In this document: positions 7,985 to 64,000 of the stretch, one piece after another
How positions within the stretch are numbered: the stretch's first letter is position 1
How the letters are laid out: the number at the start of each line of letters is the position of its first letter
DNA from: an uncultured Chloroflexia bacterium
GTDB lineage: Bacteria; Chloroflexota; Limnocylindria; Limnocylindrales; CSP1-4
Length of the DNA: 64,000 bases
Direction: 5' to 3'
NCBI GenBank assembly: GCA_963798955.1
Contig: CAWCVO010000003.1
Location: 387,074-451,073, forward strand
Program-made: the position numbers and the translations under genes
The notes under the pieces: generated by a model
Databases searched by the model: none
Seen by the model: only the letters and a program-made list of their open reading frames with translations
Told to the model about the DNA's origin: nothing

Positions 7985-8010
7985 CCACTTTGATCCACTT
8001 TGGACCACTT
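7985..8010 (-). promoter_or_regulatory. putative MraZ operator: three direct AAGTGG repeats at exact 10-nt spacing
   Basis: Plus strand shows CCACTT at 7985-7990, 7995-8000 and 8005-8010 (minus strand AAGTGG x3). They lie immediately downstream of the predicted -10 and about 110-130 nt upstream of the mraZ start. MraZ of other bacteria binds 3 direct G-rich hexamer/pentamer repeats with 10-nt periodicity in its own promoter. Confidence 0.6.
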
Positions 8011-47291: not shown

Positions 47292-48142
47292 CGCGGTTGT
47301 TTCGGCTGGAGCCAGCGCTGGGCGAACGAAGCATGCGCCGCCCATTCGTCGCGGTCGTCGAGCGGCGTGAGCTCGGTTATGCCCTGGTCGCGCAGGGCGC
47401 ACAGCAGGATGTAATCGGCGAGATGCGGGTTGCGCGGCAACAGCGGGCCGTGCAGGTACGTGCCCAGCTGGAAACCGGCGCCGCCCGCGTCACCGGGCAG
47501 GGCCATGATCCCCTCGGCGCCGTCGCGGCCGTTGTTGCCGAAGCCCGACACCACCCGGCCGAGCGGTTGGCGCCCCTCCCCCAGGAACGTCCGCCCGCCA
47601 TGGTTCTCGAAGCCGACCACCATCTGTTCCTGGCCCGCGAAGCCGGCCCGTGCGGCGGACTCGCGACCCGCCGCGACGATCGGTGAGTCTGCGCCGAGCG
47701 ATACGACGCAGCCGCCAACCAACCGCTCGCCGCTCTCGGGCGCTTCTGTCCACGCGTCAAAGAAGCCGGCGCCCTTGATCGTGCCGGCGTGGGCGGAGCG
47801 GTACTCGCGGCCGAGGTTCTGGTAGCCGCCGCACACCGCGAGCAGCACGGCACCTTGGGCGACCACCTCCCTGGCGCGCGCCATGATCGCCACCAGGTCG
47901 TCGGTGATTGCCGCCTGGTCGCGGTCGGCGCCGCCGCCGATGAACACGATGCGCGTGTCGGCGGGGATCTCGTCGTCGGCGTGCAGGATGGGCCGCACGT
48001 CGACCGCGATGCCACGCCAGCCCGCGCGGCGCACCAGCGTCGCCACGTTGCCGCGGTCGCCGTACAGGTTCAGCCGATCGGGGAAGAGATGCGCCAGCCG
48101 CACGCACGGCCGGCCTGCCGCGCCGGCTCCAGGCGAGCCCAC
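47288..48142 (-). CDS. gatD: lipid II isoglutaminyl synthase glutaminase subunit GatD (CobQ-type GATase)
   Basis: LNLYGDRGN, catalytic Cys in LLAVCGGYQNLG and His in GTYLHGPLLPRNP. GTG at 48140-48142 overlaps the murT stop by 1 nt; an alternative GTG lies about 39 nt downstream. Confidence 0.8.
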   Translation of the reverse strand: MGSPGAGAAGRPCVRLAHLFPDRLNLYGDRGNVATLVRRAGWRGIAVDVRPILHADDEIPADTRIVFIGGGADRDQAAITDDLVAIMARAREVVAQGAVLLAVCGGYQNLGREYRSAHAGTIKGAGFFDAWTEAPESGERLVGGCVVSLGADSPIVAAGRESAARAGFAGQEQMVVGFENHGGRTFLGEGRQPLGRVVSGFGNNGRDGAEGIMALPGDAGGAGFQLGTYLHGPLLPRNPHLADYILLCALRDQGITELTPLDDRDEWAAHASFAQRWLQPKQPR

Positions 48143-49895: not shown

Positions 49896-50113
49896 AACCG
49901 TCGGGCGGCTAACCTCGCTGAACGAGGTCGACGTCGAGCGCGGGACATAATCGGGGGGTGCGGCGCTCGACATCGCGCTCCTCGCCTGTCCGGAGTGCCA
50001 TGGCGCGTTGAGTTCGCCCGGCGGCCTCGTCTTCCGGGGCATGGTCCTCGAGGCGCGCGGGAGCCGCGGCTGCCGTCGCCGCCACTGAGCAAAACTCGTC
50101 ACGGCCGAGTCGC

Positions 50114-50521
50114 GTGGCTGCCAGGCAACCCTTTAGCCTGCGATCCAGCCGCACTGCCGTTCGCAGACGGAGCCGTTCGGTCGCCACCAGCTGCGTGGGC
50201 CTCCAGAACGTCCCCGCCGAGCGTGCTTACCTGGCCGAACTGCGCCGCGTCGCAGCGACGCTGCTCGCGGTGGGCCATATCTACCCGGCCGGCGATGCGG
50301 TCAATCGGACGGTACGGCGTGAGCACGGTTACGCACACGTCGCCGATCGAGCGGTGTTCGACGGACTGTTGACCGATGCCGGCTGGCGCGCCGCCTACCC
50401 GCTCACCTGCTCTGCCGAAGCCGTCCCGACGCCGCCCGGCGAGATCATCAAGGGCATCGGCGTCCACCCGTTCCCGATCCGGCCGACAACGCTCGAGTCG
50501 CACCTCCCCGAGGCAGCCTGA
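50114..50521 (+). CDS. hypothetical protein or gene remnant
   Basis: The C-terminal two thirds (..ERAYLAELRRVAATLLAVGHIYPAGDAV..GEIIKGIGVHPFPIRP) have protein-like composition and a G/C third-position bias. There is no clear RBS. An upstream out-of-frame fragment (49951-50088) encodes LLACPECHGAL (zinc-ribbon-like) without a start codon, so this may be a decayed gene. Confidence 0.25.
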   Translation: MAARQPFSLRSSRTAVRRRSRSVATSCVGLQNVPAERAYLAELRRVAATLLAVGHIYPAGDAVNRTVRREHGYAHVADRAVFDGLLTDAGWRAAYPLTCSAEAVPTPPGEIIKGIGVHPFPIRPTTLESHLPEAA

Positions 50522-50736
50522 ACCGGCGTTCTGGAGAAACCGTTGCCAACTGGCAACAGGTCAGACGTCCTGCCGATTGGTACTTCTGTACCTACCGCCC
50601 AGCAATGTCCTAGCAAAGAGTGGCACCGACAGTCGGTGGAGTGCGTGCCTCGCTCACCCGTGAGATGGGAATGGTGCTCGCGCCCTGTGCCGGTCCGCAC
50701 CCGCGGGCCCGGCGGAAGGAGAAAAGGCTACGGCCA

Positions 50737-53700
50737 ATGGCCGAGCCCAAAGGGAGGCGAGAGGTGCCCGCAGAGCGTCCCATCTTTTGGAATCGTTTGT
50801 TCACGTTTGTGATGGCTGCAGCGATCGCGGCGTCCATGTCCGTGGTCCCGGCGAAACCCACCCTGGCTGCCGCAGATACCGCCCTTGACCTGGGCAGCTC
50901 TGGCGCCTACGTCACCTTTGGCGTCCCGGCCAAGCTGGGCCTGGCCCAGTTCACCATCGAGACCTGGTTCAAGAAGACCGGCGCCGGCACGCCCAACACG
51001 ACTGGCGGAGGCGGCATCACCATCCTGCCGCTGGTGACCCACGGCGCGCCGCAGGCCGAGAACTCGGACGTCGACGCGAACTGGATCCTGGGCATCACCA
51101 ACGTCGGGGGCGACAATCTGATCGCGGCCGACTTCGAGGCGAGCCCGGGAGGCCAGAACTACCCGGTCTGGGGCAACACCCCGATCCTCGACAACACCTG
51201 GTACCACGCAGCCGCCACCTATGACGGCACGAGCTGGGCGCTGTACCTCAACGGCTCCCCGCAGACCTTGACCTGTCCGACGACCTGCGCACCGGCCGCG
51301 GCCCCGCGCTCCGACTCGCGCCAGGGCGTGGGCCTGGGCACCATGATCACCACCGACGACTTCGGCAACATGCCCTCCTACCTGGGCCGCTTCGCCGGCG
51401 TCATCGACGAAGCGCGCGTCTGGGATCACGCCCGCACGGCCGGCCAGATCCTGGCCAACCGCGACCTCGAACTCACCTCGGGCACCGGCCTCGTCGCGCG
51501 CTGGGGCATGAACGACGGCAGCGGCTCCAATGTGAGTGACTCGATCACCTCGCCGAGCGCTGCCGACGGCACCATCAGCGGTACCGGCTACAGCTGGGTC
51601 GATGGCTTCACCGTTGCGCCACCGCCTCCGGCCAACACCGCCCTCGACCTGGGCAGCTCTGGCGCCTACGTCACCTTTGGCGTCCCGGCCAAGCTGGGCC
51701 TGGCCCAGTTCACCATCGAGACCTGGTTCAAGAAGACCGGCGCCGGCACGCCCAACACGACTGGCGGAGGCGGCATCACCATCCTGCCGCTGGTGACCCA
51801 CGGCGCGCCGCAGGCCGAGAACTCGGACGTCGACGCGAACTGGATCCTGGGCATCACCAACGTCGGGGGCGACAATCTGATCGCGGCCGACTTCGAGGCG
51901 AGCCCGGGAGGCCAGAACTACCCGGTCTGGGGCAACACCCCGATCCTCGACAACACCTGGTACCACGCAGCCGCCACCTATGACGGCACGAGCTGGGCGC
52001 TGTACCTCAACGGCTCCCCGCAGACCTTGACCTGTCCGACGACCTGCGCACCGGCCGCGGCCCCGCGCTCCGACTCGCGCCAGGGCGTGGGCCTGGGCAC
52101 CATGATCACCACCGACGACTTCGGCAACATGCCCTCCTACCTGGGCCGCTTCGCCGGCGTCATCGACGAAGCGCGCGTCTGGGATCACGCCCGCACGGCC
52201 GGCCAGATCCTGGCCAACCGCGACCTCGAACTCACCTCGGGCACCGGCCTCGTCGCGCGCTGGGGCATGAACGAGGGCTCCGGACCGGAGGTCAACGATT
52301 CGATATTGCTGCCGGACGCGGCTGACGGGAACATCAGCGGTACCGGCTACAGCTGGGTCGATGGCTTCACCATCCCCGGAGTCAACAACGTTCCCGTCGC
52401 GGTCGCCGACTCCTACAGCACCCCCCAGGACACGGCGCTCAACGTGGCTGCGCCGGGCGTCCTCGGCAACGACAACGACGCGGATCTGGACCCGCTGACG
52501 GCGATCCTGGTCGCCGACGTCTCGCACGGCAGCCTGACGCTGAATGCCGACGGCAGCTTCAGCTACACGCCCAACACGGGCTACACCGGGCCGGACTCCT
52601 TCACGTACCACGCCAGCGACGGCACCGACGACTCGAACATCGCGACCGTCTCGCTGACCGTCTCCGCAGCAGGCAACACCGCGCTCGACCTCGGCTCCGC
52701 GTCTGCGTACGTCACATTCGGTGACCCGGACAAGCTCGATCTTGCCCAGTTCACGATCGAAACCTGGTTCATGCGCACCGGGACCGGCACGCCGTCCACG
52801 ACCGGCACGAACGGCTTTGCCAACGCGATTCCGCTCGTAACGCACGGCGCCCCGGACGTTGACAACCACGACAACAACGACGAGGACTGGATTCTCGCCA
52901 TCGACGCCGACACCAACACCATCGCAGCCGACTTCGAGCAGGGCGCCGGGGGCACGACGCCGAGCTCAAACAACCCCGTGCACGGGACGACGGTCATCAC
53001 CGACAACGTCTGGCACCACGCCGCGGCGACCTATGACGGCACCACCTGGAACCTGTATCTCGATGGCAATCTGGAGGCAACCCTGGCCATCGGCGAACCG
53101 ACGCGCTCGGACACCATCGAGCAGGCGGCACTGGGCACGATGCTCACGGCGAGCGGGACGGCGAAGGGCTACTTCGACGGAGTGCTCGACGAAGCCCGCG
53201 TCTGGGACCGTGCCCTGACGGGTGCCGAGATCGCCGTATCAATGAACGAGGAACTCACCTCGGGCTCCGGGCTGGTCGCCCGCTGGGGTCTGAACGAGGG
53301 GAGCGGAACGACCGTCGGTGACTCGGTCGCCAACCCGGCGAACGGCACGATCACGGGTACCGGCTACAGCTGGGTGGCAGGCGCGCCGTTCAGCATGAGC
53401 TCCGCGCCCGACGATCCGGTGCTTGTTGCGCCGGCCGACGGCGCGACCGGTGTCTCGACCTCACCGACGCTCTCGGTTACCGCTACTGATCCGGACAGCG
53501 ATTCGCTGGACGTCGATTTCTACGGCCGGCCCGCCACAGGTGGCGGTCCGACCACGCCGTTCACTCTCGTGGTCCTGCCCGACTCCCAAAACTACGTGGT
53601 ATCGGACACCGCAGCTGAACTCTTCAACGCCCAGACGCAGTGGATCGCCGACCAGCAGTCCACGCTGAACACTGTCTTTGCTTCACAACTTGGCGACGTC

Positions 53701-55635
53701 ACCGAGAACGGCACTGTCGCGGCAGAGTGGGCGCGTGCCTCGACGGCCATGGGCATCCTCGACTCCGCCGGAATCCCATACTCGATCACCGTCGGCAACC
53801 ACGATGGCTATGCGAGCGGCTACCCCACCTTCCTCTCCACGTTCGGCGCCAACCGATACGCGGGGAAGGCCTGGTACGGCGGCTATCTCGGCGACCCGAG
53901 TGACGGGATCGACGATTTCGGGCAGAACCGAGGGAACCTCGACAGCTACCAGCTGTTCAGCGCCGACAGCATGGACTTCATCGTGCTGAATCTCGAACTC
54001 GACCTGCCAACGGCAGACCACGTGGCCGACTGGGCCGACGCCGTTCTTACTGCCTACTCGACTCGCCGAGCAATCGTGATCACGCACGCATACCTGACCA
54101 CCGGCGGCACCCGCGCGACTTCCCCCTACTTCCTGGGGAGCGGTGGTCTGAGCGCCGACGATCTTTGGCAGTCGGTGCTGAGCCAGCACTGCAACGTCTT
54201 CATGGTGCTGAACGGTCATGAGCCGGGCGAGGCACGTTTGACGAGCAACAATGCCTGTGGCCAGCCTGTTCACCAGCTGCTCCAGGACTACCAGAACGAA
54301 CCCAACGGCGGCAACGCGTGGCTCCGCTACTACGTCTTCGATCCGGCCAACAACCAGATCGACACGTACACCTACTCGCCGGTCCTCGATCAGTACCAGA
54401 CCGACGCGAGCAGCCAGTTCACGCTTGGCTACGACATGCAAGGGGCGGCGGCCTTCAACCTGATCGACACCCAGACGATAACGTCGGGCGATACCGCCTC
54501 GACGACGTGGTCGGGGCTTAATCCGGGTACGACGTACGAGTGGTACGCGGTCGTCCGCGACGGTTCGCACGCCACGACAGGCCCAACCTGGACCTTCACG
54601 ACCGGGGGAGGTTCGAACAATCCACCGGTCGCCGCTGACCAGACCATCAGCCTGCCTGCCGGCGCCTCGACCGGCGGCACGTTGACGGCCAGCGACGCCG
54701 ACAGTGATCCACTCACCTACACGATCCTCACGGCGCCGACAAAGGGATCGGTCACGCTGAACGACGCCACGACCGGCTCGTTCACCTACGTGGCCCTGCC
54801 CTCGGCGTCGGGCAGCGACAGCTTCACCTTCAAGGCCAACGACGGCACCGATGACTCCAATACGGCCACGGTGACCATCAACCTGCAGCCCGGCCAGGGC
54901 TACTGGCTGGTCGCGTCCGACGGTGGCATCTTCACCTTCGGCGACGCCGGCTTCTTCGGCTCGACGGGTGGTCCGCCAGCGCTCGATCAGCCGGTCGTCA
55001 GCATGGTGCCCACGGCGGACCGGCTGGGCTACTGGCTGGTTGCCGCGGACGGTGGCATCTTCACCTTTGGCGACGCTGGCTTCTTCGGCTCACTCGGCGG
55101 CCAGGGACTGTCCGACATCGTCGGCATGGCAGTCACGCCCGATGAGCAGGGCTACTGGATGGTCGCCTCTGACGGCCAGGTGTATACGTTCGGCGACGCC
55201 GGCGACTACGGCTCGGCCGGTAGCGTGAGCGACGCGATCGTCGGCATGGCGGCCACGCCTTCTGGCGACGGCTACTGGCTGGTTGGTCGCGACGGCGAGG
55301 TATATCAATTCGGCGGCGCCGTTGACTATGGCTCGATGGGCGGCCAGTCGCTCTTCCGGCCGGTGGTCGGCATGGCCGTCACGCCCTCGGGCAACGGCTA
55401 CTGGCTAGTTGCGTCCGATGGCGGCATCTTCACCTTCGGCGACGCAGGCTTCTATGGCTCGACCGGTGGCCAGACGCTCGATCAACCGGTGGTCGGCATG
55501 ACCGCTACGCCATCGGGTGACGGCTACTGGCTGGTGGCTGGCGATGGCGGCATCTTCACCTTCGGCGACGCAGGCTTCTATGGCTCGACCGGCGGCCAGT
55601 CGCTCGACGCAGGTGTTGTTGGAATGGGGGGTTAA
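50737..55635 (+). CDS. giant secreted multidomain protein GP1: signal peptide, 2 identical LamG, cadherin-like, LamG, metallophosphoesterase-like, FN3-like, cadherin-like, six ~41-aa propeller-like repeats
   Basis: Start is ATG 50737, or GTG 50764 with GGGAGG 6 nt upstream. Signal-like LFTFVMAAAIAASMSVVPAKPTLAAA. LamG (Laminin_G_3-type) signatures FTIETWF..WYHAAATYDG..LYLNG..GVIDEARVWD at about 50876-51635, 51635-52390 and 52675-53390. Tandem-95/cadherin-like repeats (VLGNDNDADLDPLT..GSFSYTP..GPDSFTY..SDG) at about 52381-52670 and 54609-54890. Phosphoesterase-like motifs LPDSQN, GDVTENG, GNHDG, ITHAY, NGHE at about 53550-54440. Confidence 0.85.
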   Translation: MAEPKGRREVPAERPIFWNRLFTFVMAAAIAASMSVVPAKPTLAAADTALDLGSSGAYVTFGVPAKLGLAQFTIETWFKKTGAGTPNTTGGGGITILPLVTHGAPQAENSDVDANWILGITNVGGDNLIAADFEASPGGQNYPVWGNTPILDNTWYHAAATYDGTSWALYLNGSPQTLTCPTTCAPAAAPRSDSRQGVGLGTMITTDDFGNMPSYLGRFAGVIDEARVWDHARTAGQILANRDLELTSGTGLVARWGMNDGSGSNVSDSITSPSAADGTISGTGYSWVDGFTVAPPPPANTALDLGSSGAYVTFGVPAKLGLAQFTIETWFKKTGAGTPNTTGGGGITILPLVTHGAPQAENSDVDANWILGITNVGGDNLIAADFEASPGGQNYPVWGNTPILDNTWYHAAATYDGTSWALYLNGSPQTLTCPTTCAPAAAPRSDSRQGVGLGTMITTDDFGNMPSYLGRFAGVIDEARVWDHARTAGQILANRDLELTSGTGLVARWGMNEGSGPEVNDSILLPDAADGNISGTGYSWVDGFTIPGVNNVPVAVADSYSTPQDTALNVAAPGVLGNDNDADLDPLTAILVADVSHGSLTLNADGSFSYTPNTGYTGPDSFTYHASDGTDDSNIATVSLTVSAAGNTALDLGSASAYVTFGDPDKLDLAQFTIETWFMRTGTGTPSTTGTNGFANAIPLVTHGAPDVDNHDNNDEDWILAIDADTNTIAADFEQGAGGTTPSSNNPVHGTTVITDNVWHHAAATYDGTTWNLYLDGNLEATLAIGEPTRSDTIEQAALGTMLTASGTAKGYFDGVLDEARVWDRALTGAEIAVSMNEELTSGSGLVARWGLNEGSGTTVGDSVANPANGTITGTGYSWVAGAPFSMSSAPDDPVLVAPADGATGVSTSPTLSVTATDPDSDSLDVDFYGRPATGGGPTTPFTLVVLPDSQNYVVSDTAAELFNAQTQWIADQQSTLNTVFASQLGDVTENGTVAAEWARASTAMGILDSAGIPYSITVGNHDGYASGYPTFLSTFGANRYAGKAWYGGYLGDPSDGIDDFGQNRGNLDSYQLFSADSMDFIVLNLELDLPTADHVADWADAVLTAYSTRRAIVITHAYLTTGGTRATSPYFLGSGGLSADDLWQSVLSQHCNVFMVLNGHEPGEARLTSNNACGQPVHQLLQDYQNEPNGGNAWLRYYVFDPANNQIDTYTYSPVLDQYQTDASSQFTLGYDMQGAAAFNLIDTQTITSGDTASTTWSGLNPGTTYEWYAVVRDGSHATTGPTWTFTTGGGSNNPPVAADQTISLPAGASTGGTLTASDADSDPLTYTILTAPTKGSVTLNDATTGSFTYVALPSASGSDSFTFKANDGTDDSNTATVTINLQPGQGYWLVASDGGIFTFGDAGFFGSTGGPPALDQPVVSMVPTADRLGYWLVAADGGIFTFGDAGFFGSLGGQGLSDIVGMAVTPDEQGYWMVASDGQVYTFGDAGDYGSAGSVSDAIVGMAATPSGDGYWLVGRDGEVYQFGGAVDYGSMGGQSLFRPVVGMAVTPSGNGYWLVASDGGIFTFGDAGFYGSTGGQTLDQPVVGMTATPSGDGYWLVAGDGGIFTFGDAGFYGSTGGQSLDAGVVGMGG
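50887..51515 (+). repeat. LamG-module repeat, copy 1 (629 nt identical to 51646-52274)
   Basis: Base-by-base reading shows identity over 629 nt at an offset of 759 nt. Identical antisense track ORFs at 50907..51116 and 51666..51875 confirm this. Confidence 0.9.
51646..52274 (+). repeat. LamG-module repeat, copy 2
   Basis: See copy 1. Copy 2 continues to about 52358 in near-identity with the inverted copy 3 at 61409-62118. Confidence 0.9.
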
Positions 55636-55976
55636 CGATGAATCGCTTCGCCTCGCGGACTGCTGGACAGCGCCCTGGCCGCCCCGTCCTCGGGGTGATC
55701 CTGGTTGTCCCGGCGGCTCTTGCGGCGTACCCGCCCGGGCCGTTTCCCGGTCCTGCGCCGGCCGGTCTGTTTCCGAGGGTGCTGACCAGCCAGACGGTGT
55801 GCGCCGAGGGCGGCAGCCTGGCAGCGAGCCAGGGCGCGACCGACATTCACCTCGACGTACCGGCGAACGCCTTCGGCGACTGCACCCAGGTCACCATCTA
55901 CGGGGCGGACAAGGCGCTGGCCAAGCCGCTCGTGCCCGATGGCTACGCGCTGATCGAGGCGCTGGCCGTGGGCTGG
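54609..55976. repeat. left arm of ~1.37-kb near-perfect inverted repeat (3' 1 kb of GP1 + intergenic + first ~340 nt of AP1)
   Basis: Position x pairs with 114829-x. This is verified at both ends, at the stop/start junction (55635/59194, 55638/59191) and by mirrored track ORFs (54923..55228 with 59601..59906; 55090..55308 with 59521..59739). The mismatches seen are one codon in the cadherin-like part (D vs A), a diverged ~45-nt patch in the AP signal peptide, and one H/R codon. Confidence 0.9.
54898..55632 (+). repeat. six tandem ~39-43-aa coding repeats (GYWLVasDGGiFTFGDAGFyGStGGq.L..PVVGMa.TPsG.)
   Basis: Read from the GP1 translation. Six units each start with GYW[LM]V, which is consistent with a six-bladed beta-propeller. 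Confidence 0.8.
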
Positions 55977-56357
55977 ACTCCGGCTGGGGCGGCCGCGAAC
56001 GGACTATCGCTGACGGTCAGTCATCCGGCGATCAACATCGATGGCCAGGCGTTTCGCACCACCGGCGCAGGAGTCCAGAGCGATGACGGACTCGTCATCG
56101 CCGCCGGGCGAGTGACGGCCACGGTCACCGCACCGGAGGGCATCGTCATTGTTGGCCCGGGCGTCCCGAACACCAGCACCTCGGGCGACTCGCTGACCAC
56201 CCGGTCGGATGGCGACGCGCCGGCCAGCCCGAACCTGCCCCTACTGGCCCTGCTCGTGGCGGCCGGCGCCATTGAGCTGGTGGTGCTCGGTTGGCGGCAC
56301 CAACGACACGCTGAGCCGCTTGTCACTTCTGGCCCGGACCGCCCACGACGAAATTGA
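55638..56357 (+). CDS. partner protein AP1: signal peptide, ~170-aa ectodomain, C-terminal TM anchor with basic tail
   Basis: The ATG lies 2 nt after the GP1 stop (TAACGATG). Signal-like VLGVILVVPAALAAYPP, two Cys, then PNTSTSGD, a spacer, TM (LPLLALLVAAGAIELVVLGW) and RHQRH. Paralogue of AP2. Confidence 0.7.
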   Translation: MNRFASRTAGQRPGRPVLGVILVVPAALAAYPPGPFPGPAPAGLFPRVLTSQTVCAEGGSLAASQGATDIHLDVPANAFGDCTQVTIYGADKALAKPLVPDGYALIEALAVGWTPAGAAANGLSLTVSHPAINIDGQAFRTTGAGVQSDDGLVIAAGRVTATVTAPEGIVIVGPGVPNTSTSGDSLTTRSDGDAPASPNLPLLALLVAAGAIELVVLGWRHQRHAEPLVTSGPDRPRRN

Positions 56358-58569
56358 CCGACACGGACGCCGAGTACCCGTGCGGAAATGGATCGGTGAT
56401 CCAGGTCTGATAGAAGACCTCGTACGCCTGCTGCTGGATGGCAATGACGTGGAAGTGGGCGATCCCGTTCTCGTCCGTGAGGGCTTCCACCGGGCTCTGT
56501 CCTTCAGGTCGCCCGTTGATCGAGGTTTCGCCCGGATATAGGCCCTCGGCGGTGTAGAGCACCTGGCCCATGCTGATGGATACCCCCGACCGTTGGATGG
56601 GCGTGTTGAGCCGGTCCACGAGCTGCACAGTAAAGTCCACCTCGGGGGGATCGGCGACCTCATGGTTGACGGCCTGGGGCAGTATCTGCGCACGTTCCTC
56701 GACAGCCGGAAAGAGGCGCGCTGAACTGATCGAAGGCGGGCTCGCAGTCAACGCGTAGAGCACCGACTGCTGGTCTACGCCGGGCATCGAGGCCGTGTTC
56801 GGCGCGAGCAGGACGTACTCGGCAGTCGCCCCCGCGGGCAGCACCGTGGGTCCCTCATGGATGATCCAGTAGCTGCTCATGTAGGGTCCCAGCGCAACAG
56901 CGAAGTGCGGCTCCAGATCTCCTGCCGAAGCGTTGTGAGCGCGCACGACCAGGCTATCGACACTCTGCAGGGCACCCGTGGTGTGCTGGTCGACTGGCTC
57001 GAGCAGGAGCGGACCCGGAGACAGCAAAGCGACCACGAGCAGCGCAGCTCCACCCGCCGCGAACGCGACGCTCGTGAATCGCGCGGCCCAGCGTCTCAGG
57101 CGCTCGCTAATGGCAGTGCGCGATCCAATTCCGTCGACGGTGGCCAGCGAGACCAGGATCGCGGGAACGGCATAGACGAAGTAGCTGTTGAGTGATCTGG
57201 TCGGGAGCAGCAGCGCCACGAGCGGCAGGGCCGGCAGGATTCGCTTCAGGCTGCCGTACCAGCCGACCAGGGCCACGAGCGCGGCGAGCATCACCAGCGC
57301 ACCTGCGAGGGTGAAGGCGACCAGGTTCCCGCCCGCCACGAAGAACGTGGTGGCAAAGGCCACGAAGCCCTGGCCAAAGGGCACCAGCGGGTCAACAAAG
57401 GGCAGGAGGACACTCGTGAGCCAGGCGGACGGGTCCCAGATGATGAACGGCACATTGGGAACCAGGAAGGCGGCCGCCAGGAGGAAGAAATAGCGTGTGA
57501 CAACCGACCTGCCGCGGCCGTGCAGGCGTGCTTCGAGAGCGATCGCAATCAGGGCAAACGGCACGACAAACCACGCCGACTGCTTGACGGTGCACGCCAA
57601 ACCGAGAGCGATCGGACCGAGCCAGCGCGCGGCAGAGGGCTCAGATGGGTCGCCGAAGCGGTCCCAGCGCCAGAAGGCGGCGACCAGGAACGGGATCATG
57701 AGCGGGTCGGTTACGCCGCCCGTGGCGTAGTTCACATAGAGCTCGAGGCTGGCGATGATCGGCACGAGGCCGCGGAACCTGGGTGGCAGAGCGAGCCACA
57801 TCGCGACCATCCCCAAAATCCAGAACGCCGCATCGACGTACAACGCGGCTTGCGCCTGGATTCCCACGGCGAGGACGGGTACGTAGGCGAGGAACGCGCC
57901 GGCTGGGTAGTCCAGACTGTGGACGAAGCCGCCCGAAAGTGTGTTGGTGGTCCCGGAAGGCAGCACGCGGAACGCGTCGAGTGTCCACGACAGATCAGCG
58001 CCGTACGGGTTCGTGCCCTGCAGGAGCAGCTGAGCGGCACCCTGGTCGAAGGCAACCTCGTCGGTTCCGTAGGCCGGGCTGCCGTACACGGCGACGCGTG
58101 TCCAGACCCCAAGCGCTACGACCACGCCAACGATCAGGATGGCGTCGATCGAGCGCCCCCAGCGCTTGCCCAGCGGCAGGCCCGCTGCGACCAGCAGGAT
58201 GACGCCCGCCGCCGTGTATAGAAATCCAAGCTCGGGCGCGCCGCTGACCACGAACGACGGCTGGTAGAGCTTGAGGCCCCAGAGGATCCAGATGAGCGCG
58301 CCAACGATCCGCAGGAGAACCGGCAGGTCAATGGTTGTCGCGGGACCCGGAGGTGCCGCGACGCGATGATCGTCGCTGATGTGAAAGCCCTCTCGTACTC
58401 CCCTCAGACCCTTTGGAGACGCCCGGGGAGAGACGACTGAGCTAGCTTCGCCTCTGTCGCCGCCACCCGCGCACGAGCAGCATGAACGCGCCGAGCAAGC
58501 CGAGCAAGCCGAAAGCGATCGCGAGCAGCCCCGGGCCACTCGCCGAAGGATCCAGCGCCGGCGTGTCAA
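56323..58569 (-). CDS. polytopic membrane protein, GT-C-fold glycosyltransferase-like (DUF2029/GT87-like by eye) with ~250-aa C-terminal extracytoplasmic domain
   Basis: About 12-14 TM helices. The first loop carries YGTDEVAFDQGAAQLLLQGTNPYG, an acidic motif plus NPY as in GT-C mannosyl/arabinosyl-transferase-like families. The only in-frame starts upstream of the first TM are TTG 58569 and GTG 58539, both inside AP2. The 3' end overlaps AP1 by 35 nt. Confidence 0.7.
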   Translation of the reverse strand: MTRRRWILRRVARGCSRSLSACSACSARSCCSCAGGGDRGEASSVVSPRASPKGLRGVREGFHISDDHRVAAPPGPATTIDLPVLLRIVGALIWILWGLKLYQPSFVVSGAPELGFLYTAAGVILLVAAGLPLGKRWGRSIDAILIVGVVVALGVWTRVAVYGSPAYGTDEVAFDQGAAQLLLQGTNPYGADLSWTLDAFRVLPSGTTNTLSGGFVHSLDYPAGAFLAYVPVLAVGIQAQAALYVDAAFWILGMVAMWLALPPRFRGLVPIIASLELYVNYATGGVTDPLMIPFLVAAFWRWDRFGDPSEPSAARWLGPIALGLACTVKQSAWFVVPFALIAIALEARLHGRGRSVVTRYFFLLAAAFLVPNVPFIIWDPSAWLTSVLLPFVDPLVPFGQGFVAFATTFFVAGGNLVAFTLAGALVMLAALVALVGWYGSLKRILPALPLVALLLPTRSLNSYFVYAVPAILVSLATVDGIGSRTAISERLRRWAARFTSVAFAAGGAALLVVALLSPGPLLLEPVDQHTTGALQSVDSLVVRAHNASAGDLEPHFAVALGPYMSSYWIIHEGPTVLPAGATAEYVLLAPNTASMPGVDQQSVLYALTASPPSISSARLFPAVEERAQILPQAVNHEVADPPEVDFTVQLVDRLNTPIQRSGVSISMGQVLYTAEGLYPGETSINGRPEGQSPVEALTDENGIAHFHVIAIQQQAYEVFYQTWITDPFPHGYSASVSVNFVVGGPGQK

Positions 58570-59191
58570 GGGTGTCGCCCGAGGTGCTGGTGTTCGGGAT
58601 TCCCGGACCGACGATGACGATGCCTACCGGATCGTTCACGGTTACGGTCACCTCGCCGGCACTCACGACGAGCCCATCGTCGTTCTGTATGCCCCCGCCC
58701 GTGGTGCGGAATGCCAGGGTCTTGGAGTTGATCGCTGTGCTACGGACCGTCAGCACAAGCCCCGATACGAGCTGCCCGACGATCGCCGAGTGGCCAGACG
58801 CGGCCTGCCCGACCGACAGTGACAGGCTGGAGGCAGACACCCCGGTCGCCGACCAGCCCACGGCCAGCGCCTCGATCAGCGCGTAGCCATCGGGCACGAG
58901 CGGCTTGGCCAGCGCCTTGTCCGCCCCGTAGATGGTGACCTGGGTGCAGTCGCCGAAGGCGTTCGCCGGTACGTCGAGGCGAATGTCGGTCGCGCCCTGG
59001 CTCGCTGCCAGGCTGCCGCCCTCGGCGCACACCGTCTGGCTGGTCAGCACCCTCGGAAACAGACCGGCCGGCGCAGGACCGGGAAACGGCCCGGGCGGGT
59101 ACGCCGCAAGAGCCGCCGGGACAACCAGGAGCACCCCGAGGAAGGCGGCGGCCAGGCCGCTGCCCAGCCGCCGCGAGGCGAAGCGATTCAT
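58442..59191 (-). CDS. partner protein AP2 (paralogue of AP1): signal peptide, ectodomain, C-terminal TM anchor with basic tail
   Basis: 249 aa. The N-terminal ~113 aa are almost identical to AP1. C-terminus: IPNTSTSGD, a spacer, LLAIAFGLLGLLGAFMLLV, then RGWRRQRRS. The ATG lies 2 nt after the GP2 stop. Confidence 0.7.
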   Translation of the reverse strand: MNRFASRRLGSGLAAAFLGVLLVVPAALAAYPPGPFPGPAPAGLFPRVLTSQTVCAEGGSLAASQGATDIRLDVPANAFGDCTQVTIYGADKALAKPLVPDGYALIEALAVGWSATGVSASSLSLSVGQAASGHSAIVGQLVSGLVLTVRSTAINSKTLAFRTTGGGIQNDDGLVVSAGEVTVTVNDPVGIVIVGPGIPNTSTSGDTLDTPALDPSASGPGLLAIAFGLLGLLGAFMLLVRGWRRQRRS

Positions 59192-60220
59192 CGTTAACCC
59201 CCCATTCCAACAACACCTGCGTCGAGCGACTGGCCGCCGGTCGAGCCATAGAAGCCTGCGTCGCCGAAGGTGAAGATGCCGCCATCGCCAGCCACCAGCC
59301 AGTAGCCGTCACCCGATGGCGTAGCGGTCATGCCGACCACCGGTTGATCGAGCGTCTGGCCACCGGTCGAGCCATAGAAGCCTGCGTCGCCGAAGGTGAA
59401 GATGCCGCCATCGGACGCAACTAGCCAGTAGCCGTTGCCCGAGGGCGTGACGGCCATGCCGACCACCGGCCGGAAGAGCGACTGGCCGCCCATCGAGCCA
59501 TAGTCAACGGCGCCGCCGAATTGATATACCTCGCCGTCGCGACCAACCAGCCAGTAGCCGTCGCCAGAAGGCGTGGCCGCCATGCCGACGATCGCGTCGC
59601 TCACGCTACCGGCCGAGCCGTAGTCGCCGGCGTCGCCGAACGTATACACCTGGCCGTCAGAGGCGACCATCCAGTAGCCCTGCTCATCGGGCGTGACTGC
59701 CATGCCGACGATGTCGGACAGTCCCTGGCCGCCGAGTGAGCCGAAGAAGCCAGCGTCGCCAAAGGTGAAGATGCCACCGTCCGCGGCAACCAGCCAGTAG
59801 CCCAGCCGGTCCGCCGTGGGCACCATGCTGACGACCGGCTGATCGAGCGCTGGCGGACCACCCGTCGAGCCGAAGAAGCCGGCGTCGCCGAAGGTGAAGA
59901 TGCCACCGTCGGACGCGACCAGCCAGTAGCCCTGGCCGGGCTGCAGGTTGATGGTCACCGTGGCCGTATTGGAGTCAGCGGTGCCGTCGTTGGCCTTGAA
60001 GGTGAAGCTGTCGCTGCCCGACGCCGAGGGCAGGGCCACGTAGGTGAACGAGCCGGTCGTGGCGTCGTTCAGCGTGACCGATCCCTTTGTCGGCGCCGTG
60101 AGGATCGTGTAGGTGAGTGGATCACTGTCGGCGTCGCTGGCCGTCAACGTGCCGCCGGTCGAGGCGCCGGCAGGCAGGCTGATGGTCTGGTCAGCGGCGA
60201 CCGGTGGATTGTTCGAACCT
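58853..60220. repeat. right arm of the ~1.37-kb inverted repeat
   Basis: Reverse complement of 54609-55976 (see left arm). Confidence 0.9.
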
Positions 60221-63200
60221 GGCGGCGCTCCGTGGACAAAGCCGGTGCCGGAGTCCGTGAAGGTGTAGCCGTCCATCGGCAGGAACACCCAGTCGTAGGA
60301 GTCCGCGTGGAGCGTCAGCTTGAAGATGCCGAATGTGTCGTTGTTGCGCACGACGCTGGTCGCCAGGGTGGTGCCGAGCGGGTGATGCTCCTCACCGCCC
60401 ATGCCCACGGTGAACTGCTGGATCCCGTACGTCGGATCGGCGACAGGCGCGTCAGCGGGCGTGGCACCAGACTTCATGGGCACGAAGCGTTCGTAGATGT
60501 GGTCGTGGCCGTCCAGCAGGATGTCCACGCCGCCGGCATACAGGTCATCCCACAATGGCTGTAAAGCCTGGAGGTTGGTCTGACCCGAGCTGTAGCGCGG
60601 CTTGTGCCACAGCGCGATCACGTTCTTCGTGCTGTTCGCGGCCAGGTCCGCCTTGAGCCACAGTTCCTGCGGCGAGCCGACATCGCAACCGCCCGGAACC
60701 AGCTCGCACTCACTGTCGAGATTGACGATGTGCCAGTTGCTGGCCGGGATGTCGTAGCTGTAGTAGCTGTTGCCATCGGCGTCGGTTGCGTTCGCGCCAA
60801 AGAAGTCGAAGTACGCCGTCAGGCTGCCGGGACGCTGGCCGTCACCCCAGTCGTGGTTGCCGGCGATTGGACGGGTGCGGTCGAAGACCGACGGATCGCC
60901 CCACGGGGTCGGCGCATAGCAGTCCGCGTACTCCGTCGCGGTCCCGGTTGCGTAGACGTTGTCGCCCGTGGTGAAGATGTTGCCGTCGATGCCCTCGATG
61001 ATGTTGCCGGTGGCCGAGTCGTCGGTGGTGTCGCACGAAGCAATGTCGCCGACACCGACGAAGACCGGGTCGGAGCTTGGTGTGGTGTGGAAGGTCCAGG
61101 TGGGACCGGTCGTGGTCAGGGTCCCGTCGCTGAGGGTCACATACCACTCGAACTCCTGGCCCTGGCCGAGGTTCGACCACGTCGCTGTATCGCTGGCCGC
61201 GGTCACATTCGTGTGCTGGGCGATCTGGGCAAAGTTGCCGCTGGCGAAGGGTCGCCCGTAGTAGGTGACCGTCAGAGGATCGCCGTCCGGATCAGACACG
61301 CCGACGTCAAGCGTCGGCGAGGTCCCGACACCGGTGGCGCCGTCAGACGGCGCGTTGAGCGTCGGCGCATCGGGCGGCGTATCGCCGGAGGGAGGCACGA
61401 AGCCGTCTACCCAGCTGTAGCCGGTACCGCTGATGTTCCCGTCAGCCGCGTCCGGCAGCAATATCGAATCGTTGACCTCCGGTCCGGAGCCCTCGTTCAT
61501 GCCCCAGCGCGCGACGAGGCCGGTGCCCGAGGTGAGTTCGAGGTCGCGGTTGGCCAGGATCTGGCCGGCCGTGCGGGCGTGATCCCAGACGCGCGCTTCG
61601 TCGATGACGCCGGCGAAGCGGCCCAGGTAGGAGGGCATGTTGCCGAAGTCGTCGGTGGTGATCATGGTGCCCAGGCCCACGCCCTGGCGCGAGTCGGAGC
61701 GCGGGGCCGCGGCCGGTGCGCAGGTCGTCGGACAGGTCAAGGTCTGCGGGGAGCCGTTGAGGTACAGCGCCCAGCTCGTGCCGTCATAGGTGGCGGCTGC
61801 GTGGTACCAGGTGTTGTCGAGGATCGGGGTGTTGCCCCAGACCGGGTAGTTCTGGCCTCCCGGGCTCGCCTCGAAGTCGGCCGCGATCAGATTGTCGCCC
61901 CCGACGTTGGTGATGCCCAGGATCCAGTTCGCGTCGACGTCCGAGTTCTCGGCCTGCGGCGCGCCGTGGGTCACCAGCGGCAGGATGGTGATGCCGCCTC
62001 CGCCAGTCGTGTTGGGCGTGCCGGCGCCGGTCTTCTTGAACCAGGTCTCGATGGTGAACTGGGCCAGGCCCAGCTTGGCCGGGACGCCAAAGGTGACGTA
62101 GGCGCCAGAGCTGCCCAGATCGAGGGCGGTGTTGCCCGGGCCACCGCTGGGCTGGAATTCGTAGGCACCGCGATCGTCGTAGGTGCGGCTGCCAGCGCCG
62201 CTGTCGGTCGTGGCCGGGTCGTCGATGCGCGGTTTGCCCTCGATGTCCGTGGCCTGCTGGTTCGACGCGGCCGAGTCGGCGCTATCGATCGCCGGCGAGC
62301 CCGCGGTCAGGTGGTAGTCGCCGACGTTGATCGCGACGTTAAACGGGGCAACAGCGGGACGCTGAGCGATGGGCGCTGCCGCCGCGAACAGCGGATCCCC
62401 CTCAAGCCCGTGTGCCTCCTGTCCGGACACTGCCGTCTGGAAGGCGGAGAGCGAGGTATAGCTGACGCTGTTCCACTGGATGGTCTGCGACGTCCCATCC
62501 GTCTCGTAGATCAAGTCGTAGTCCATGCTCGTGCCGCTGACCGAAGCCGCGTCCACGCGGATGTTGGTGGGCTGGCCGCTGGCCGTCCCGGAAGGGGACT
62601 GCCGGCGCAGGCCGTTGTCGACCGAGATGTTGTTGGCCAGGATTGCGCCCCCCGAGCCGGTCGAACCCTCGAGGTTGATGCCGGCGGTGACGTTGCCCTG
62701 GACGGTGTTACCGACGATCACGTTGTTGGGCGCGTTGTTGTTGTCGATGCCGTGGTCGCCGTTGCCGTAGCTCAGGTTGTCGATGAAGTAGTTCGACTGC
62801 GCCCCGGCATAGGCCTGCAGGCCCGAGTCCTCGTTGTCGTAGGTGATGTTGTTGATGATCGTGTTGTTGTCCGAGCCGATGCCGGTGACCTGGATGCCGG
62901 TCGCGTTGCGCTCCCACTCCTCCGCGTTGCCGAAGGAGGTGTTGTTGCTGACCAGGTTGTCCGACGAGCCACCCGTCAGCCGGATCCCATCCTGGCTGTT
63001 GTGGTCGGTGGTGTTGCCGGTGATGACCGAGGAGTCGGTGTTGGTGAAGTAGATGCCCATGCGCGTGACCGCAGGGGTGGCCTGGACCGGACTGCCAGCC
63101 GAGCTGACGTGGTTGTTCGAAATGGTTATGTGGTCGGCTCCCGAGGCGTAGATGCCGTAGTCCACCGTGTCAGTGATCGTGAAGCCGTCGATGACGATGT

Positions 63201-64000
63201 AGCTATGGCCGGTCGAGCCAGTCATGCGGAAGGCATTGCCAGTGGCAGTGCCGCTGCCTGTGACCGTCACGCCGGGCGCCGCCGAGTAGGTGATCGGGTT
63301 GCCCGCGGTGCCGGAATGAGCCGGGCTCACGGTCTCCGCATAGGTGCCGGCAACAACCAGGACACTCTCACCGGGTTGCAGCACGCTGGCGGCCTGGCCG
63401 ATCGTACAGAAAGGTGCCGCCGCAGTGCCGGAACCGCCGTCGGAACAGCTTCCGTTGGTTTTGTCGACGTAGTAGGTGGAACTGCCACTGGTCGGCGCGC
63501 CGTGCACCGCAGCCGTACCTGAATCCGTGTAGGTCTGACCGGCGATGGGCAGGAAGACCCAGTCGTACGAGGTCGGGTGCAGGGTCAGCTTGAGCACGCC
63601 AAAGGTGGTGCCGCTGCCGGTCACGGTCGCGGGGAATGAGCCGTTGTACGACTGCAGTGCCGCGCCGCCGGTGCCGACCGTGAACTGCCGCACGCCGTAG
63701 GTCGTGTCGACTGCGCCGGTGGGATCGATCGGCTGCATGCGCTCGTAGATGTGATCGTGGCCCTCGAGGAGGATGTCCACGCCCGCGTCGTAGATGTCCT
63801 GGTAGAACGCCTGCAAGGCGGTGTCGGTGGTGACGCCCGAGCTGAAACGAGGCTTGTGCCAAATGGCGATGACGTTCTTGCCGCTGTTGATCGCCAGGTC
63901 GGCCTTCAGCCATAGCTCCTGAGGTGAGCCGGCGGCGCAGCCGCCGGGCACCAGCTGGCATTCCGTGTCGAGATTGACCACGTGCCAATTGCTGCTGGGG
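59194..64000 (-). CDS. giant secreted multidomain protein GP2 (5' end beyond the window): PAP-like metallophosphoesterase, right-handed beta-helix, LamG, FN3-like, second PAP-like metallophosphoesterase, cadherin-like, six propeller-like repeats
   Basis: The frame stays open to position 64000 (..PSSNWHVVNLD), so the gene is partial. Purple-acid-phosphatase-type motifs GDIASC, GDNVY, GNHDW, WHKP and GHDHIYER lie at about 60225-61085, and a second, truncated copy at about 63500-64000. PbH1/beta-helix repeats (ITISNNHV, ITGNTTDHN, LVSNNTSFGN, IINNITYDN, FIDNLSYGN, VIVGNTVQGN, LANNISVDN) lie at about 62180-63480. LamG at 61409-62118. The C-terminal 340 aa are identical, bar one residue, to GP1. 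Confidence 0.85.
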   Translation of the reverse strand, partial: PSSNWHVVNLDTECQLVPGGCAAGSPQELWLKADLAINSGKNVIAIWHKPRFSSGVTTDTALQAFYQDIYDAGVDILLEGHDHIYERMQPIDPTGAVDTTYGVRQFTVGTGGAALQSYNGSFPATVTGSGTTFGVLKLTLHPTSYDWVFLPIAGQTYTDSGTAAVHGAPTSGSSTYYVDKTNGSCSDGGSGTAAAPFCTIGQAASVLQPGESVLVVAGTYAETVSPAHSGTAGNPITYSAAPGVTVTGSGTATGNAFRMTGSTGHSYIVIDGFTITDTVDYGIYASGADHITISNNHVSSAGSPVQATPAVTRMGIYFTNTDSSVITGNTTDHNSQDGIRLTGGSSDNLVSNNTSFGNAEEWERNATGIQVTGIGSDNNTIINNITYDNEDSGLQAYAGAQSNYFIDNLSYGNGDHGIDNNNAPNNVIVGNTVQGNVTAGINLEGSTGSGGAILANNISVDNGLRRQSPSGTASGQPTNIRVDAASVSGTSMDYDLIYETDGTSQTIQWNSVSYTSLSAFQTAVSGQEAHGLEGDPLFAAAAPIAQRPAVAPFNVAINVGDYHLTAGSPAIDSADSAASNQQATDIEGKPRIDDPATTDSGAGSRTYDDRGAYEFQPSGGPGNTALDLGSSGAYVTFGVPAKLGLAQFTIETWFKKTGAGTPNTTGGGGITILPLVTHGAPQAENSDVDANWILGITNVGGDNLIAADFEASPGGQNYPVWGNTPILDNTWYHAAATYDGTSWALYLNGSPQTLTCPTTCAPAAAPRSDSRQGVGLGTMITTDDFGNMPSYLGRFAGVIDEARVWDHARTAGQILANRDLELTSGTGLVARWGMNEGSGPEVNDSILLPDAADGNISGTGYSWVDGFVPPSGDTPPDAPTLNAPSDGATGVGTSPTLDVGVSDPDGDPLTVTYYGRPFASGNFAQIAQHTNVTAASDTATWSNLGQGQEFEWYVTLSDGTLTTTGPTWTFHTTPSSDPVFVGVGDIASCDTTDDSATGNIIEGIDGNIFTTGDNVYATGTATEYADCYAPTPWGDPSVFDRTRPIAGNHDWGDGQRPGSLTAYFDFFGANATDADGNSYYSYDIPASNWHIVNLDSECELVPGGCDVGSPQELWLKADLAANSTKNVIALWHKPRYSSGQTNLQALQPLWDDLYAGGVDILLDGHDHIYERFVPMKSGATPADAPVADPTYGIQQFTVGMGGEEHHPLGTTLATSVVRNNDTFGIFKLTLHADSYDWVFLPMDGYTFTDSGTGFVHGAPPGSNNPPVAADQTISLPAGASTGGTLTASDADSDPLTYTILTAPTKGSVTLNDATTGSFTYVALPSASGSDSFTFKANDGTADSNTATVTINLQPGQGYWLVASDGGIFTFGDAGFFGSTGGPPALDQPVVSMVPTADRLGYWLVAADGGIFTFGDAGFFGSLGGQGLSDIVGMAVTPDEQGYWMVASDGQVYTFGDAGDYGSAGSVSDAIVGMAATPSGDGYWLVGRDGEVYQFGGAVDYGSMGGQSLFRPVVGMAVTPSGNGYWLVASDGGIFTFGDAGFYGSTGGQTLDQPVVGMTATPSGDGYWLVAGDGGIFTFGDAGFYGSTGGQSLDAGVVGMGG
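59197..59931 (-). repeat. six tandem ~41-aa propeller-like coding repeats of GP2
   Basis: Mirror image of 54898-55632. Confidence 0.8.
61409..62118 (-). repeat. LamG-module repeat, copy 3 (inverted; near-identical to 51649-52358)
   Basis: Position x in copy 2 pairs with 113767-x. The identical antisense track ORF 61892..62101 matches 51666..51875. The translated LamG is identical to GP1 LamG-2, including the NEGSGPEVNDSILLPDAADGNISG tail. Confidence 0.85.

Follow-up and report, generated by a model that had tools for sequence, protein, structure and literature searches.

Organization of the locus

The last 13 kb of a 64,000-nucleotide stretch of DNA from an uncultured Chloroflexia bacterium (contig CAWCVO010000003.1, positions 387,074 to 451,073; the whole stretch is called the window below) is filled by the five genes considered here. 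Two encode giant proteins (GP1 and GP2), two encode small anchored proteins (AP1 and AP2), and one encodes a membrane protein (MP). The G+C fraction of this part is 0.65-0.68, compared to about 0.70 elsewhere. An earlier note, prepared from the sequence itself, had described giant/AP pairs on either side of a central membrane protein, with a small AP gene lying 2 nt after each giant gene. Open reading frames (ORFs) and their translations place all five genes in just this way (Table 1), and the 2-nt spacing is seen for AP1 and AP2 alike. AP1 and MP are convergent, their 3' ends overlapping by 35 nt (56323-56357). The ortholog of GP2 in a close relative (L002; related loci and proteins bear L and P numbers) has 2103 amino acids (aa).

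Table 1. Genes, protein modules and DNA repeats at the locus, numbered from the first letter of the window
Feature	Position	Strand	Remarks
GP1, giant secreted protein	50737-55635	+	ORF and translation; 1632 aa from ATG, N-terminus resembling a signal peptide
GP1 tandem LamG cassettes	50878-51609 and 51628-52368	+	96-99% identical to the GP2 cassette at 61399-62139
GP1 metallophosphoesterase-like domain	53623-54222	+	Pfam 17.6 bits, below the cut-off of 21.5
Left arm of 1050-nt inverted repeat	54609-55658		Covers cadherin-like domain, propeller, and first 21 nt of AP1
GP1 C-terminal module	54886-55632	+	Six GYWLV..DGG.F.FGDAG repeats, 37-43 aa each; residues 1384-1632 of GP1
AP1, small anchored protein	55638-56357	+	239 aa; starts 2 nt past the GP1 stop
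MP, membrane protein	56323-58380	-	Certain from GTG 58251; ATC 58380 is a proposed start
AP2, paralog of AP1	58442-59191	-	249 aa; starts 2 nt past the GP2 stop
Right arm of 1050-nt inverted repeat	59171-60220		100% complementary to the left arm
GP2, giant protein, partial	59194 to beyond 64000	-	
GP2 C-terminal module	59197-59943	-	Six GYWLV repeats
GP2 purple acid phosphatase-like domain	60493-60978	-	Metallophos PF00149, 38.6 bits against a cut-off of 21.5
GP2 right-handed beta-helix (Beta_helix/NosD)	62589-63273	-	Pfam/NCBIfam

The same GP-AP-MP-AP-GP order is found, with its own alleles, in L001, an independent assembly from another sample. Two other loci cover parts of it: L003 spans AP2 to MP, and L088 spans a giant gene and then an AP 94% identical to AP1. 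Since independent assemblies share the structure, the possibility that the locus is an assembly chimera, which the earlier note had left to be checked, is ruled out, and the locus can be taken as genuine. The contexts of AP relatives were obtained by exact-sequence look-ups, and the contigs come from Danish soil metagenomes (ENA ERZ250395xx; MFD isolate names), apparently those of the Microflora Danica Nanopore project (PMC12313526). These relatives are Nanopore metagenome-assembled genomes (MAGs) with frameshifted giant genes: in the contigs of L001, L004, L005, and L006, the giant genes are split into 2-5 ORFs (e.g., L001 2930-9999 and L004 575-4865). The breaks probably reflect indel errors, the genes being long, repetitive, and rich in G+C, and protein catalogues therefore under-represent the giants.

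Heads of the giant proteins

GP1 consists of a signal peptide, two LamG domains, a cadherin/Big_9 domain, a third LamG domain, an atypical metallophosphoesterase lying within an fn3-like domain, a second cadherin/Big_9 domain, and six GYWLV repeats. Pfam recognizes three Laminin_G_3 and two Big_9/cadherin domains, with a sub-threshold match to Metallophos. In the metallophosphoesterase-like domain the motifs LPDSQ, GDVTENG, and GNHD are present, and the final His motif takes the form GHEPG; a sequence search of PDB found no relative of the domain. Around positions 53400-54600 (+), it is flanked by the fn3-like halves ...DVDFYGRP and AAFNLIDTQ...TWTFTT. In GP2 the fn3-like domain is contiguous, and it appears that the metallophosphoesterase of GP1 was inserted into such a domain.

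The part of GP2 within the window runs from the end of a first purple acid phosphatase (PAP)-like domain through a beta-helix, a LamG domain, a PAP-like phosphoesterase, and a cadherin/Big_9 domain to six GYWLV repeats (Pfam: Metallophos, Beta_helix/NosD, Laminin_G_3, and Big_9). The phosphoesterase matches a plant purple acid phosphatase (PDB 6gja, of the wheat PAPhy type; E 1e-5) and retains the PAP metal-ligand motifs as GVGDIA, GDNVY, GNHDW, WHKP, and GHDHIYER (D, GDxxY, GNH[DE], H, and GHxH). By profile match and motif, it qualifies as a putative metallophosphoesterase of the purple acid phosphatase type. The stretch just N-terminal of the beta-helix (from 63498 downward) matches a GH120 xylosidase (3vst, E 6e-8). 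The heads found are thus those that had been supposed: three LamG domains and an atypical metallophosphoesterase in GP1 and PAP-like, beta-helix, and LamG domains in GP2.

The GYWLV repeat module

Six repeat units are present in both giants and in most relatives, a number that can close a propeller ring. Judged by the repeat pattern, each 41-aa unit would have four strands, which favors a beta-propeller over a solenoid or an SH3 fold. At permissive thresholds, the module has no match in Pfam, NCBIfam, or the sequences of PDB, and comparison to SLH, LysM, SH3b, CWB, and PG_binding profiles gave only spurious sub-threshold fragments of 15-30 residues (L24e, SH3_YKFC, and CSD). Several entries of the Joint Genome Institute (JGI) label proteins with GYWLV repeats as 'ribosomal protein L24E', because the repeat gives a spurious 18-residue match to PF01246, a match that was reproduced.

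The tail is not confined to the system encoded at this locus. A search for the family saturated at 8000 scored candidates, 7996 of them significant, so that at least this many proteins have the module. Many of them are fused to peptidoglycan hydrolases, and those with names are annotated as coming from Acidimicrobiales or Actinomycetota MAGs. The module may be N- or C-terminal. Domain partners were counted in the best 120 of these matches: 21 have peptidoglycan-active domains (10 NlpC/P60, 3 CHAP, 3 VanY, 2 YkuD, 2 amidase [Amidase_2 and Amidase_3], and 1 3D), 11 have CAP, and others have S8, GH43, NAGPA, or Ig-like domains. Because this pattern of partners resembles that of wall-targeting modules, we infer that the GYWLV module may be the lineage's general envelope-targeting module.

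Inverted repeats, gene conversion, and the origin of the mirror arrangement

The two giants do share one tail, a cadherin-like domain and six repeats, as had been noted, and the DNA arms encoding it are 100% identical over 1050 nt. The arms extend 21 nt into the AP genes, which over the next 347 nt have an identity of 93%. The LamG cassettes, each 741 nt long, show 96-99% identity, both within GP1 and between GP1 and GP2. In L001 one arm matches the other at 99.7% over 1598 nt. Between L001 and the window, on the other hand, the locus is mosaic, with 95-100% identity in flanks and MP and only 54-85% in propellers and APs. Nonsynonymous divergence (dN) is 0.186 for the propeller and 0.15-0.16 for AP, compared to 0.016 for MP and 0.020 for the cadherin-like domain, and synonymous divergence (dS) is raised too. 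From identity within a genome combined with divergence between strains, it follows that the arms evolve in concert and that the segment is a hot spot of between-strain divergence. Gene conversion keeps the tails and the 5' ends of the AP genes identical.

One might suppose that the repeats serve as a recombination switch, the inverted tail arms or LamG cassettes permitting inversion of the interval between them and a reshuffling of heads and tails that varies the surface. The repeats are suitably perfect or nearly so (1050 and 741 nt), the same ones are kept uniform in L001, and the locus is mosaic between close strains. Yet the window, L001, and L002 are colinear, with no inverted isomer seen; inversion at the tail arms would alter only the C-termini of the APs; no recombinase gene was noticed in or beside the locus in the gene tables of relatives; and gene conversion by itself accounts for the identity of the repeats. 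We consider a switch very unlikely.

How did the mirror arise? The locus L002 (on a 1.88-Mb contig, ERZ25039533 contig_51236) is 99-99.75% identical to the window and lacks the segment corresponding to 49991-56342, i.e., GP1-AP1. Between MP and the murT flank there remains, at L002 12901-12938, a 39-nt remnant of the 5' end of AP1. The missing arm is therefore a deletion, and the presence of the arm varies between strains. In the single-arm relatives L002, L005/L010, and L009, GP-AP-MP all lie on one strand, and in L008 and L089 tail, AP, and MP do so as well, the end of the contig cutting the giant gene. Because single-arm relatives keep this one-strand order and MP of the window points the same way as GP2-AP2, we conclude that the mirror arose recently, as an inverted GP-AP duplicate placed downstream of MP in an ancestral GP-AP-MP operon. 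The mirror symmetry is not a principle of design; it is incidental and dispensable, as a 99%-identical strain does without GP1-AP1 and retains only the 39-nt scar.

AP1 carries a Glu within its transmembrane helix, and its tail is 14 aa longer than in a 94%-identical relative (P0001). Perhaps the 3' end of AP1 is decaying.

The AP family

The close family of AP has a constant order: a signal peptide, an invariant mature tip AYPPGPFPGPAP (tip peptide AYPPGPFPGPAPAGLFP), an ectodomain with two Cys, a Ser/Thr-rich stalk, a transmembrane helix, and a basic tail. The Pro-rich tip remains invariant even at 40% overall identity. AP1 and AP2 are 73% identical, with a 22-aa insertion in the ectodomain of AP2. 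Both C-termini have a hydrophobic helix and then a positively charged tail, AP1 ending in ...LLALLVAAGAIELVVLGWRHQRH... and AP2 in ...LLAIAFGLLGLLGAFMLLVRGWRRQRRS. The parts that the earlier note had named for AP, a secreted domain, a transmembrane helix at the C-terminus, and an Arg-rich tail, are borne out.

Relatives are few by one measure, nine in 5.8 billion proteins (word-indexed search). A profile search of 1.84 billion representatives gave 195, of which 27 have E of 1e-30 or less. Many of them have a sorting signal of canonical or nearly canonical form (LPSTG, LPHTG, LPRTG, LPFTG, LAFTG, or xTG[KE]PF) before the transmembrane helix and basic tail. To judge from the alignment, an LPXTG-type sorting signal is ancestral to the family and has decayed in the window; given the decay of the pentapeptide, the APs of the window are probably held by the transmembrane helix and Arg-rich tail. 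The sequence VPNTS was considered as a sortase motif of AP and rejected, since the alignment puts the LPXTG column elsewhere. The ectodomain of AP occurs also as a C-proximal module of large surface proteins, beside wall-sorting signals, PG_binding-like ends, and the like.

Nine representatives with the AP domain (P0225, P0264, P0268, P0270, P0279, P0281, P0298, P0313, and P0318) have ...P.[FT]TG as their very last residues and lack a hydrophobic segment beyond it. Either their genes were called too short or they form a family in which the chain ends with the sorting motif.

At permissive thresholds AP has no match in Pfam or NCBIfam, and its profile has none among PDB sequences. Comparison of the AP profile with the Ig-like part of MP (hhalign) revealed no relation. 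A polymorphic toxin with its immunity protein was considered for the giant/AP pair and rejected: the conserved part is C-terminal and the variable part N-terminal, and AP carries a signal peptide and an anchor.

The GT-C fold of MP

The full-length AlphaFold model of MP (685 aa) has a predicted local distance difference test score (pLDDT) of 91.4 and shows a membrane domain of about 13 helices followed at 458-685 by two C-terminal Ig-like beta-sandwich domains. When this model was compared to PDB using Foldseek, the best 50 matches were to the Ig-like part only. The membrane domain (residues 1-456) modelled by itself with AlphaFold2 (pLDDT 92) gave a different result: 17 of the 20 best matches in PDB are enzymes of glycosyltransferase fold C (GT-C) or proteins with that fold, with probabilities of 0.90-1.00 and TM-scores up to 0.57. 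Among them are ALG3 (9s6r; E 5.8e-4, TM 0.49/0.57) and PimE (9dm5; TM 0.48/0.55), with further matches to Pmt4, AftA, ArnT, Pmt1/2, ALG12, AftB, PIG-M, PIG-U, EmbB, and STT3. Unrelated transporters reached a probability of 0.23 or lower. The GT-C fold, which the earlier note had proposed for MP, is established at the level of the predicted structure, the model of the membrane domain matching GT-C enzymes almost exclusively.

Asp107 (in YGTDEVAFDQ), which begins a large loop after helix 3, is invariant in 42-45 homologs of MP. One homolog (P0183; E 1e-74 to MP) passes the Pfam threshold for PMT_2 (PF13231; 28.1 against 26.1 bits) and matches GT87 (PF09594) below the cut-off. MP itself has no NCBIfam match at permissive thresholds and, by profile search, no sequence relative in PDB. 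Among 5.8 billion proteins, MP has 59 homologs.

Where MP begins is a separate question. Upstream of GTG 58251, the earliest canonical start codon past the stop of AP2, the frame (58251-58441) codes for a transmembrane helix. An ortholog with 63% identity (L004), which starts with ATG further upstream, retains this helix in the same frame. In the window no ATG, GTG, or TTG lies between the stop of AP2 and the upstream helix. The ATC at 58380, 7 nt past GAGAGGG, could serve as a non-canonical start codon, and where the gene was called shorter in relatives (638-641 aa), the call may be mistaken.

AP and MP in other genomes

One genome per species (GTDB) was scanned with an alignment of MP, giving 79 loci. 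In the databases, the majority are entered as MAGs of Acidimicrobiaceae, Acidimicrobiales, Streptosporangiaceae, or Actinomycetes, and the nearest ones (63-64%) as 'uncultured Chloroflexia'. With a first hidden Markov model (HMM) applied to six-frame ORFs, 51 of 87 loci had an AP-like ORF that precedes MP and shares its strand. After one iteration, the HMM found one just upstream, again on the same strand, in 70 of the 79 GTDB loci, and the ORF is absent in only 4 of the 68 loci that have at least 2.5 kb upstream of MP. The conserved partner of AP is MP, not the giant protein.

The order in distant loci is AP-like, X (a lipoprotein with a beta-propeller of the YVTN/lactonase type), MP, DUF2079, and sortase, with no giant gene. 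X is found in 68 loci, DUF2079 in 61, and sortase in 29, in these at a distance of 2-6 kb from MP. The sortase is about 440 aa long, which includes a long extension at its C-terminus, and it passes the general sortase model only and no class model. The full cluster, with an LPXTG-type AP-like protein and an MP-type GT-C enzyme, is located at about 7.7-15.7 kb of loci from Acidimicrobiaceae-type MAGs (L007, L037, L045, L049, L053, L055, L058-L060, L062, L072, L074, L078, L086, and others).

LamG-rich giants with GYWLV tails are found directly upstream of AP in the close clade only, in 11 of 12 informative AP genes. The adjacency is seen in the window (twice), L001 (twice), L002, L004, L005/L010, L008, L009, L088, L089, and for the second GP of L006. 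Where the junction was read (window, L001, L002, L005, L088, and L089), it is 'stop-CG-ATG' or a 4-nt overlap; in L004, L008, and L009, a tail-bearing ORF is directly upstream of AP. The proposal in the earlier note that a tail-bearing gene, AP, and a GT-C gene go together therefore holds in the close clade. Beyond it, one half of the proposal survives, the nearness of AP homologues to a GT-C gene, and the other half, a tail-bearing gene before AP, does not.

It may be asked in this regard whether two unrelated functions merely lie side by side: an AP-MP envelope module (for a glycoprotein or a wall polymer) within the wider AP-X-MP-DUF2079-sortase cluster and, landed upstream of it in one clade, giant proteins that are held to the wall by the generic GYWLV module and are functionally independent of AP and MP. 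AP-MP is conserved in most genomes without giants, the GP1-AP1 arm is dispensable between 99%-identical strains, and the genes flanking the loci vary, so that the block acts like movable accessory DNA. The flanks vary, however, while GP-AP-MP stay together down to 63% identity of MP; giant gene and AP invariably overlap or have a gap of 2 nt; and GP and AP moved jointly at duplication or deletion. We regard mere adjacency as unlikely.

Does the tail dock on AP?

A more intimate relationship was envisioned at first, in which the six-repeat propeller binds the AP polypeptide directly and MP only decorates one of the partners; the tip AYPPGPFPGPAP would be a candidate site of binding. In the close clade, as described above, the tail-bearing gene is coupled to AP (2-nt gap) in 11 of 12 informative cases. 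The perfect repeat covers the tail and the AP 5' end as a single unit; no other segments diverge as fast between the window and L001 as tail and AP do; and the two were duplicated, converted, and deleted jointly. The constancy of the AP tip would fit a binding site. There are also natural fusions of the AP domain and GYWLV repeats (P0300, P0231, and P0291), the first of which comprises, in a single chain, a signal peptide, six GYWLV repeats, an AP domain, a transmembrane helix, and RRRRR. Set against these are the generic nature of the module, carried by thousands of proteins, mostly wall hydrolases, and the small size of the close clade of AP (the nine members noted above). In addition, AP-like genes pair with MP in about 70 genomes, at loci most of which have no tail-bearing gene. 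The pairing of tail and AP is broken in L006 and L011, and there is no co-variation beyond the closest pair. Co-evolution of tail and AP, with a signal in that pair only, was rejected. Direct docking is thus unlikely, and a linkage that is mediated by glycan or is otherwise indirect seems somewhat more probable.

A proposed function for the locus

The explanation that we tentatively favor, with confidence falling a little short of even, combines an AP-MP glycoprotein core, a generic envelope-binding tail, and a clade-specific coupling of giant phosphatase/lectin proteins. The five genes would constitute a strain-variable locus for cell-surface display in a monoderm-type soil bacterium, built on an older and widely conserved AP-MP core. 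AP would be a small exported surface protein and MP a GT-C-fold enzyme with two external Ig-like domains, which may use a polyprenyl-phosphate sugar to glycosylate either AP or a wall polymer attached via AP. In the clade of the window, the gene of a giant secreted enzyme, with PAP-like, beta-helix, and LamG heads, would be translationally coupled ahead of AP. The six-repeat GYWLV module would keep these giant enzymes on the cell surface through a ligand in the envelope, and the AP glycoprotein would be the most likely local ligand or co-receptor. According to this model, the ancestral GP-AP-MP operon gained its inverted GP-AP downstream of MP, the tails and AP 5' ends were homogenized by gene conversion, and the heads may have diverged through shuffling of domain cassettes.

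Several observations weigh against this explanation. The aligned LPXTG column reads TRSDG in AP1 and TPALD in AP2, so that neither AP of the window has a usable LPXTG, and no sortase is encoded within the 64-kb window. MP of the window has no match to Pfam GT-C families, including PMT_2 and GT87, even at E 10, and comparison of its profile to E. coli ArnT (hhalign) was not significant (probability 0.1). Across eight arms, the identity of the propellers (0.70-0.91) is unrelated to that of AP (0.39-0.82) or MP (0.62-0.95). In L006 MP comes straight after a propeller tail, without an AP gene in between, and in L011 an AP-MP pair with the Pro-rich tip has no tail-bearing gene within 10 kb. Finally, the putative binding of the GYWLV module to the envelope is read from its domain partners, and the putative link between MP and AP from the synteny of their genes.

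A bolder version may be imagined, although we think it improbable: that the GYWLV propeller, AP, and the GT-C enzyme together make up a new, glycan-dependent docking system of uncultured soil bacteria resembling Actinomycetota. The GT-C enzyme, with DUF2079, would build a glycan on AP, the propeller would be a lectin for the glycan or for the Pro-rich tip, and one receptor would position both wall hydrolases and giant nutrient-scavenging enzymes.

The favored explanation, or even its parts, would have some consequences. We found no published description of the GYWLV repeat, the AP family, the MP family, or their cluster, and the combination of genes, unrecognized when the locus was first noticed, is still so: AP, MP, and the repeat have neither a Pfam or NCBIfam family nor a sequence relative in PDB. 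There are therefore three large families (the six-repeat module of about 250 aa, AP, and the Ig-bearing GT-C enzyme) that lie outside the curated libraries and have no sequence-related solved structure, all of them belonging to the envelope of soil bacteria that are abundant but uncultured. Should the repeat prove to be the main wall-targeting module of these lineages, thousands of 'hypothetical' hydrolases would gain an annotation, and surface display would gain a handle. AP and the GT-C enzyme are paired almost universally, often with a sortase alongside, which points to a pathway for surface glycoproteins of monoderm bacteria that is still undescribed. The giants would place PAP-like domains on the cell surface, which bears on the release of organic phosphorus in soil. 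The locus also offers an example of concerted evolution, in which inverted copies are identical within a genome, although no segments diverge more than these between close strains.

Other features of the window

The window contains a bacterial class A RNase P RNA at 8735-9087 (-), full length with 203.9 bits, and no tRNA genes were found in the 64 kb. The gene murT (lipid II isoglutaminyl synthase subunit) at 48142-49555 (-) lies in two frames, with a break near 48830-48840, compared to an intact ortholog of 470 aa in L002; the adjoining gatD is intact. The split in murT is either a Nanopore indel or a genuine frameshift.

Comparison with known systems

Surface display by means of an anchored protein, a glycosyltransferase, and a wall-targeting module is of a known kind, the mirror symmetry being incidental. 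Gram-positive bacteria have a variety of modules that target proteins to the wall non-covalently: SLH, CWB2, GW, LysM, SH3b, and choline-binding repeats (reviewed in PMC5817068). Like these, GYWLV repeats are fused N- or C-terminally to peptidoglycan hydrolases and exoenzymes and occur in very many proteins of one lineage. They differ in having no sequence relation to the known modules and in presumably forming a propeller.

Cohesin and dockerin provide for display on scaffoldins that are anchored by sortase or SLH domains, e.g., ScaE of Ruminococcus flavefaciens. In the locus, too, different enzymes share a conserved C-terminal module and a small envelope-anchored protein is encoded separately beside them. 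The shared module, however, is a six-repeat unit of about 250 aa rather than a pair of EF-hands of about 70 aa, it is found mostly on wall hydrolases with no AP nearby, and Pfam finds no dockerin or cohesin domain in GP1, GP2, AP1, or AP2.

GspA of Actinomyces oris is a sortase-anchored glycoprotein with LCP-dependent glycosylation, and dedicated pairs of sortase and substrate are known, e.g., the 'marine sortase' TIGR03784. The AP-MP cluster is like these in that a small LPXTG-type surface protein is encoded together with putative machinery for envelope glycosylation and, in 29 related loci, a sortase. In contrast to GspA, the candidate for glycosylation here is a GT-C enzyme with DUF2079 and not an LCP transferase (LCP transferases are reviewed in PMC7831098). 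In contrast to the dedicated pairs, the sortase of the cluster fits no curated class, and in the window LPXTG is degenerate and no sortase is nearby.

The phosphoesterase domains of GP2 share their PAP metal-ligand motifs with secreted purple acid phosphatases and phytases (6gja). GP2 differs from these in holding two copies, of putative activity, within about 2100 aa, beside LamG, beta-helix, cadherin, and propeller modules.

The closest likeness in fold is that between the membrane domain of MP and the GT-C enzymes using polyprenyl-phosphate sugars (PimE/GT87, ALG3, Pmt/GT39, ArnT, and AftA/AftB/Emb). MP resembles those enzymes, too, in that the helices preceding a large loop are odd in number and the loop has an invariant Asp, a candidate for the catalytic residue. 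Extra soluble domains at the C-terminus, as in MP, are found also in Emb and AftD. MP departs from the known GT-C enzymes in that it has three helices, not one, before its predicted catalytic loop, that its C-terminal part is a tandem pair of Ig-like domains, that by sequence it stands outside the curated families, and that its gene is paired with that of a small anchored protein.

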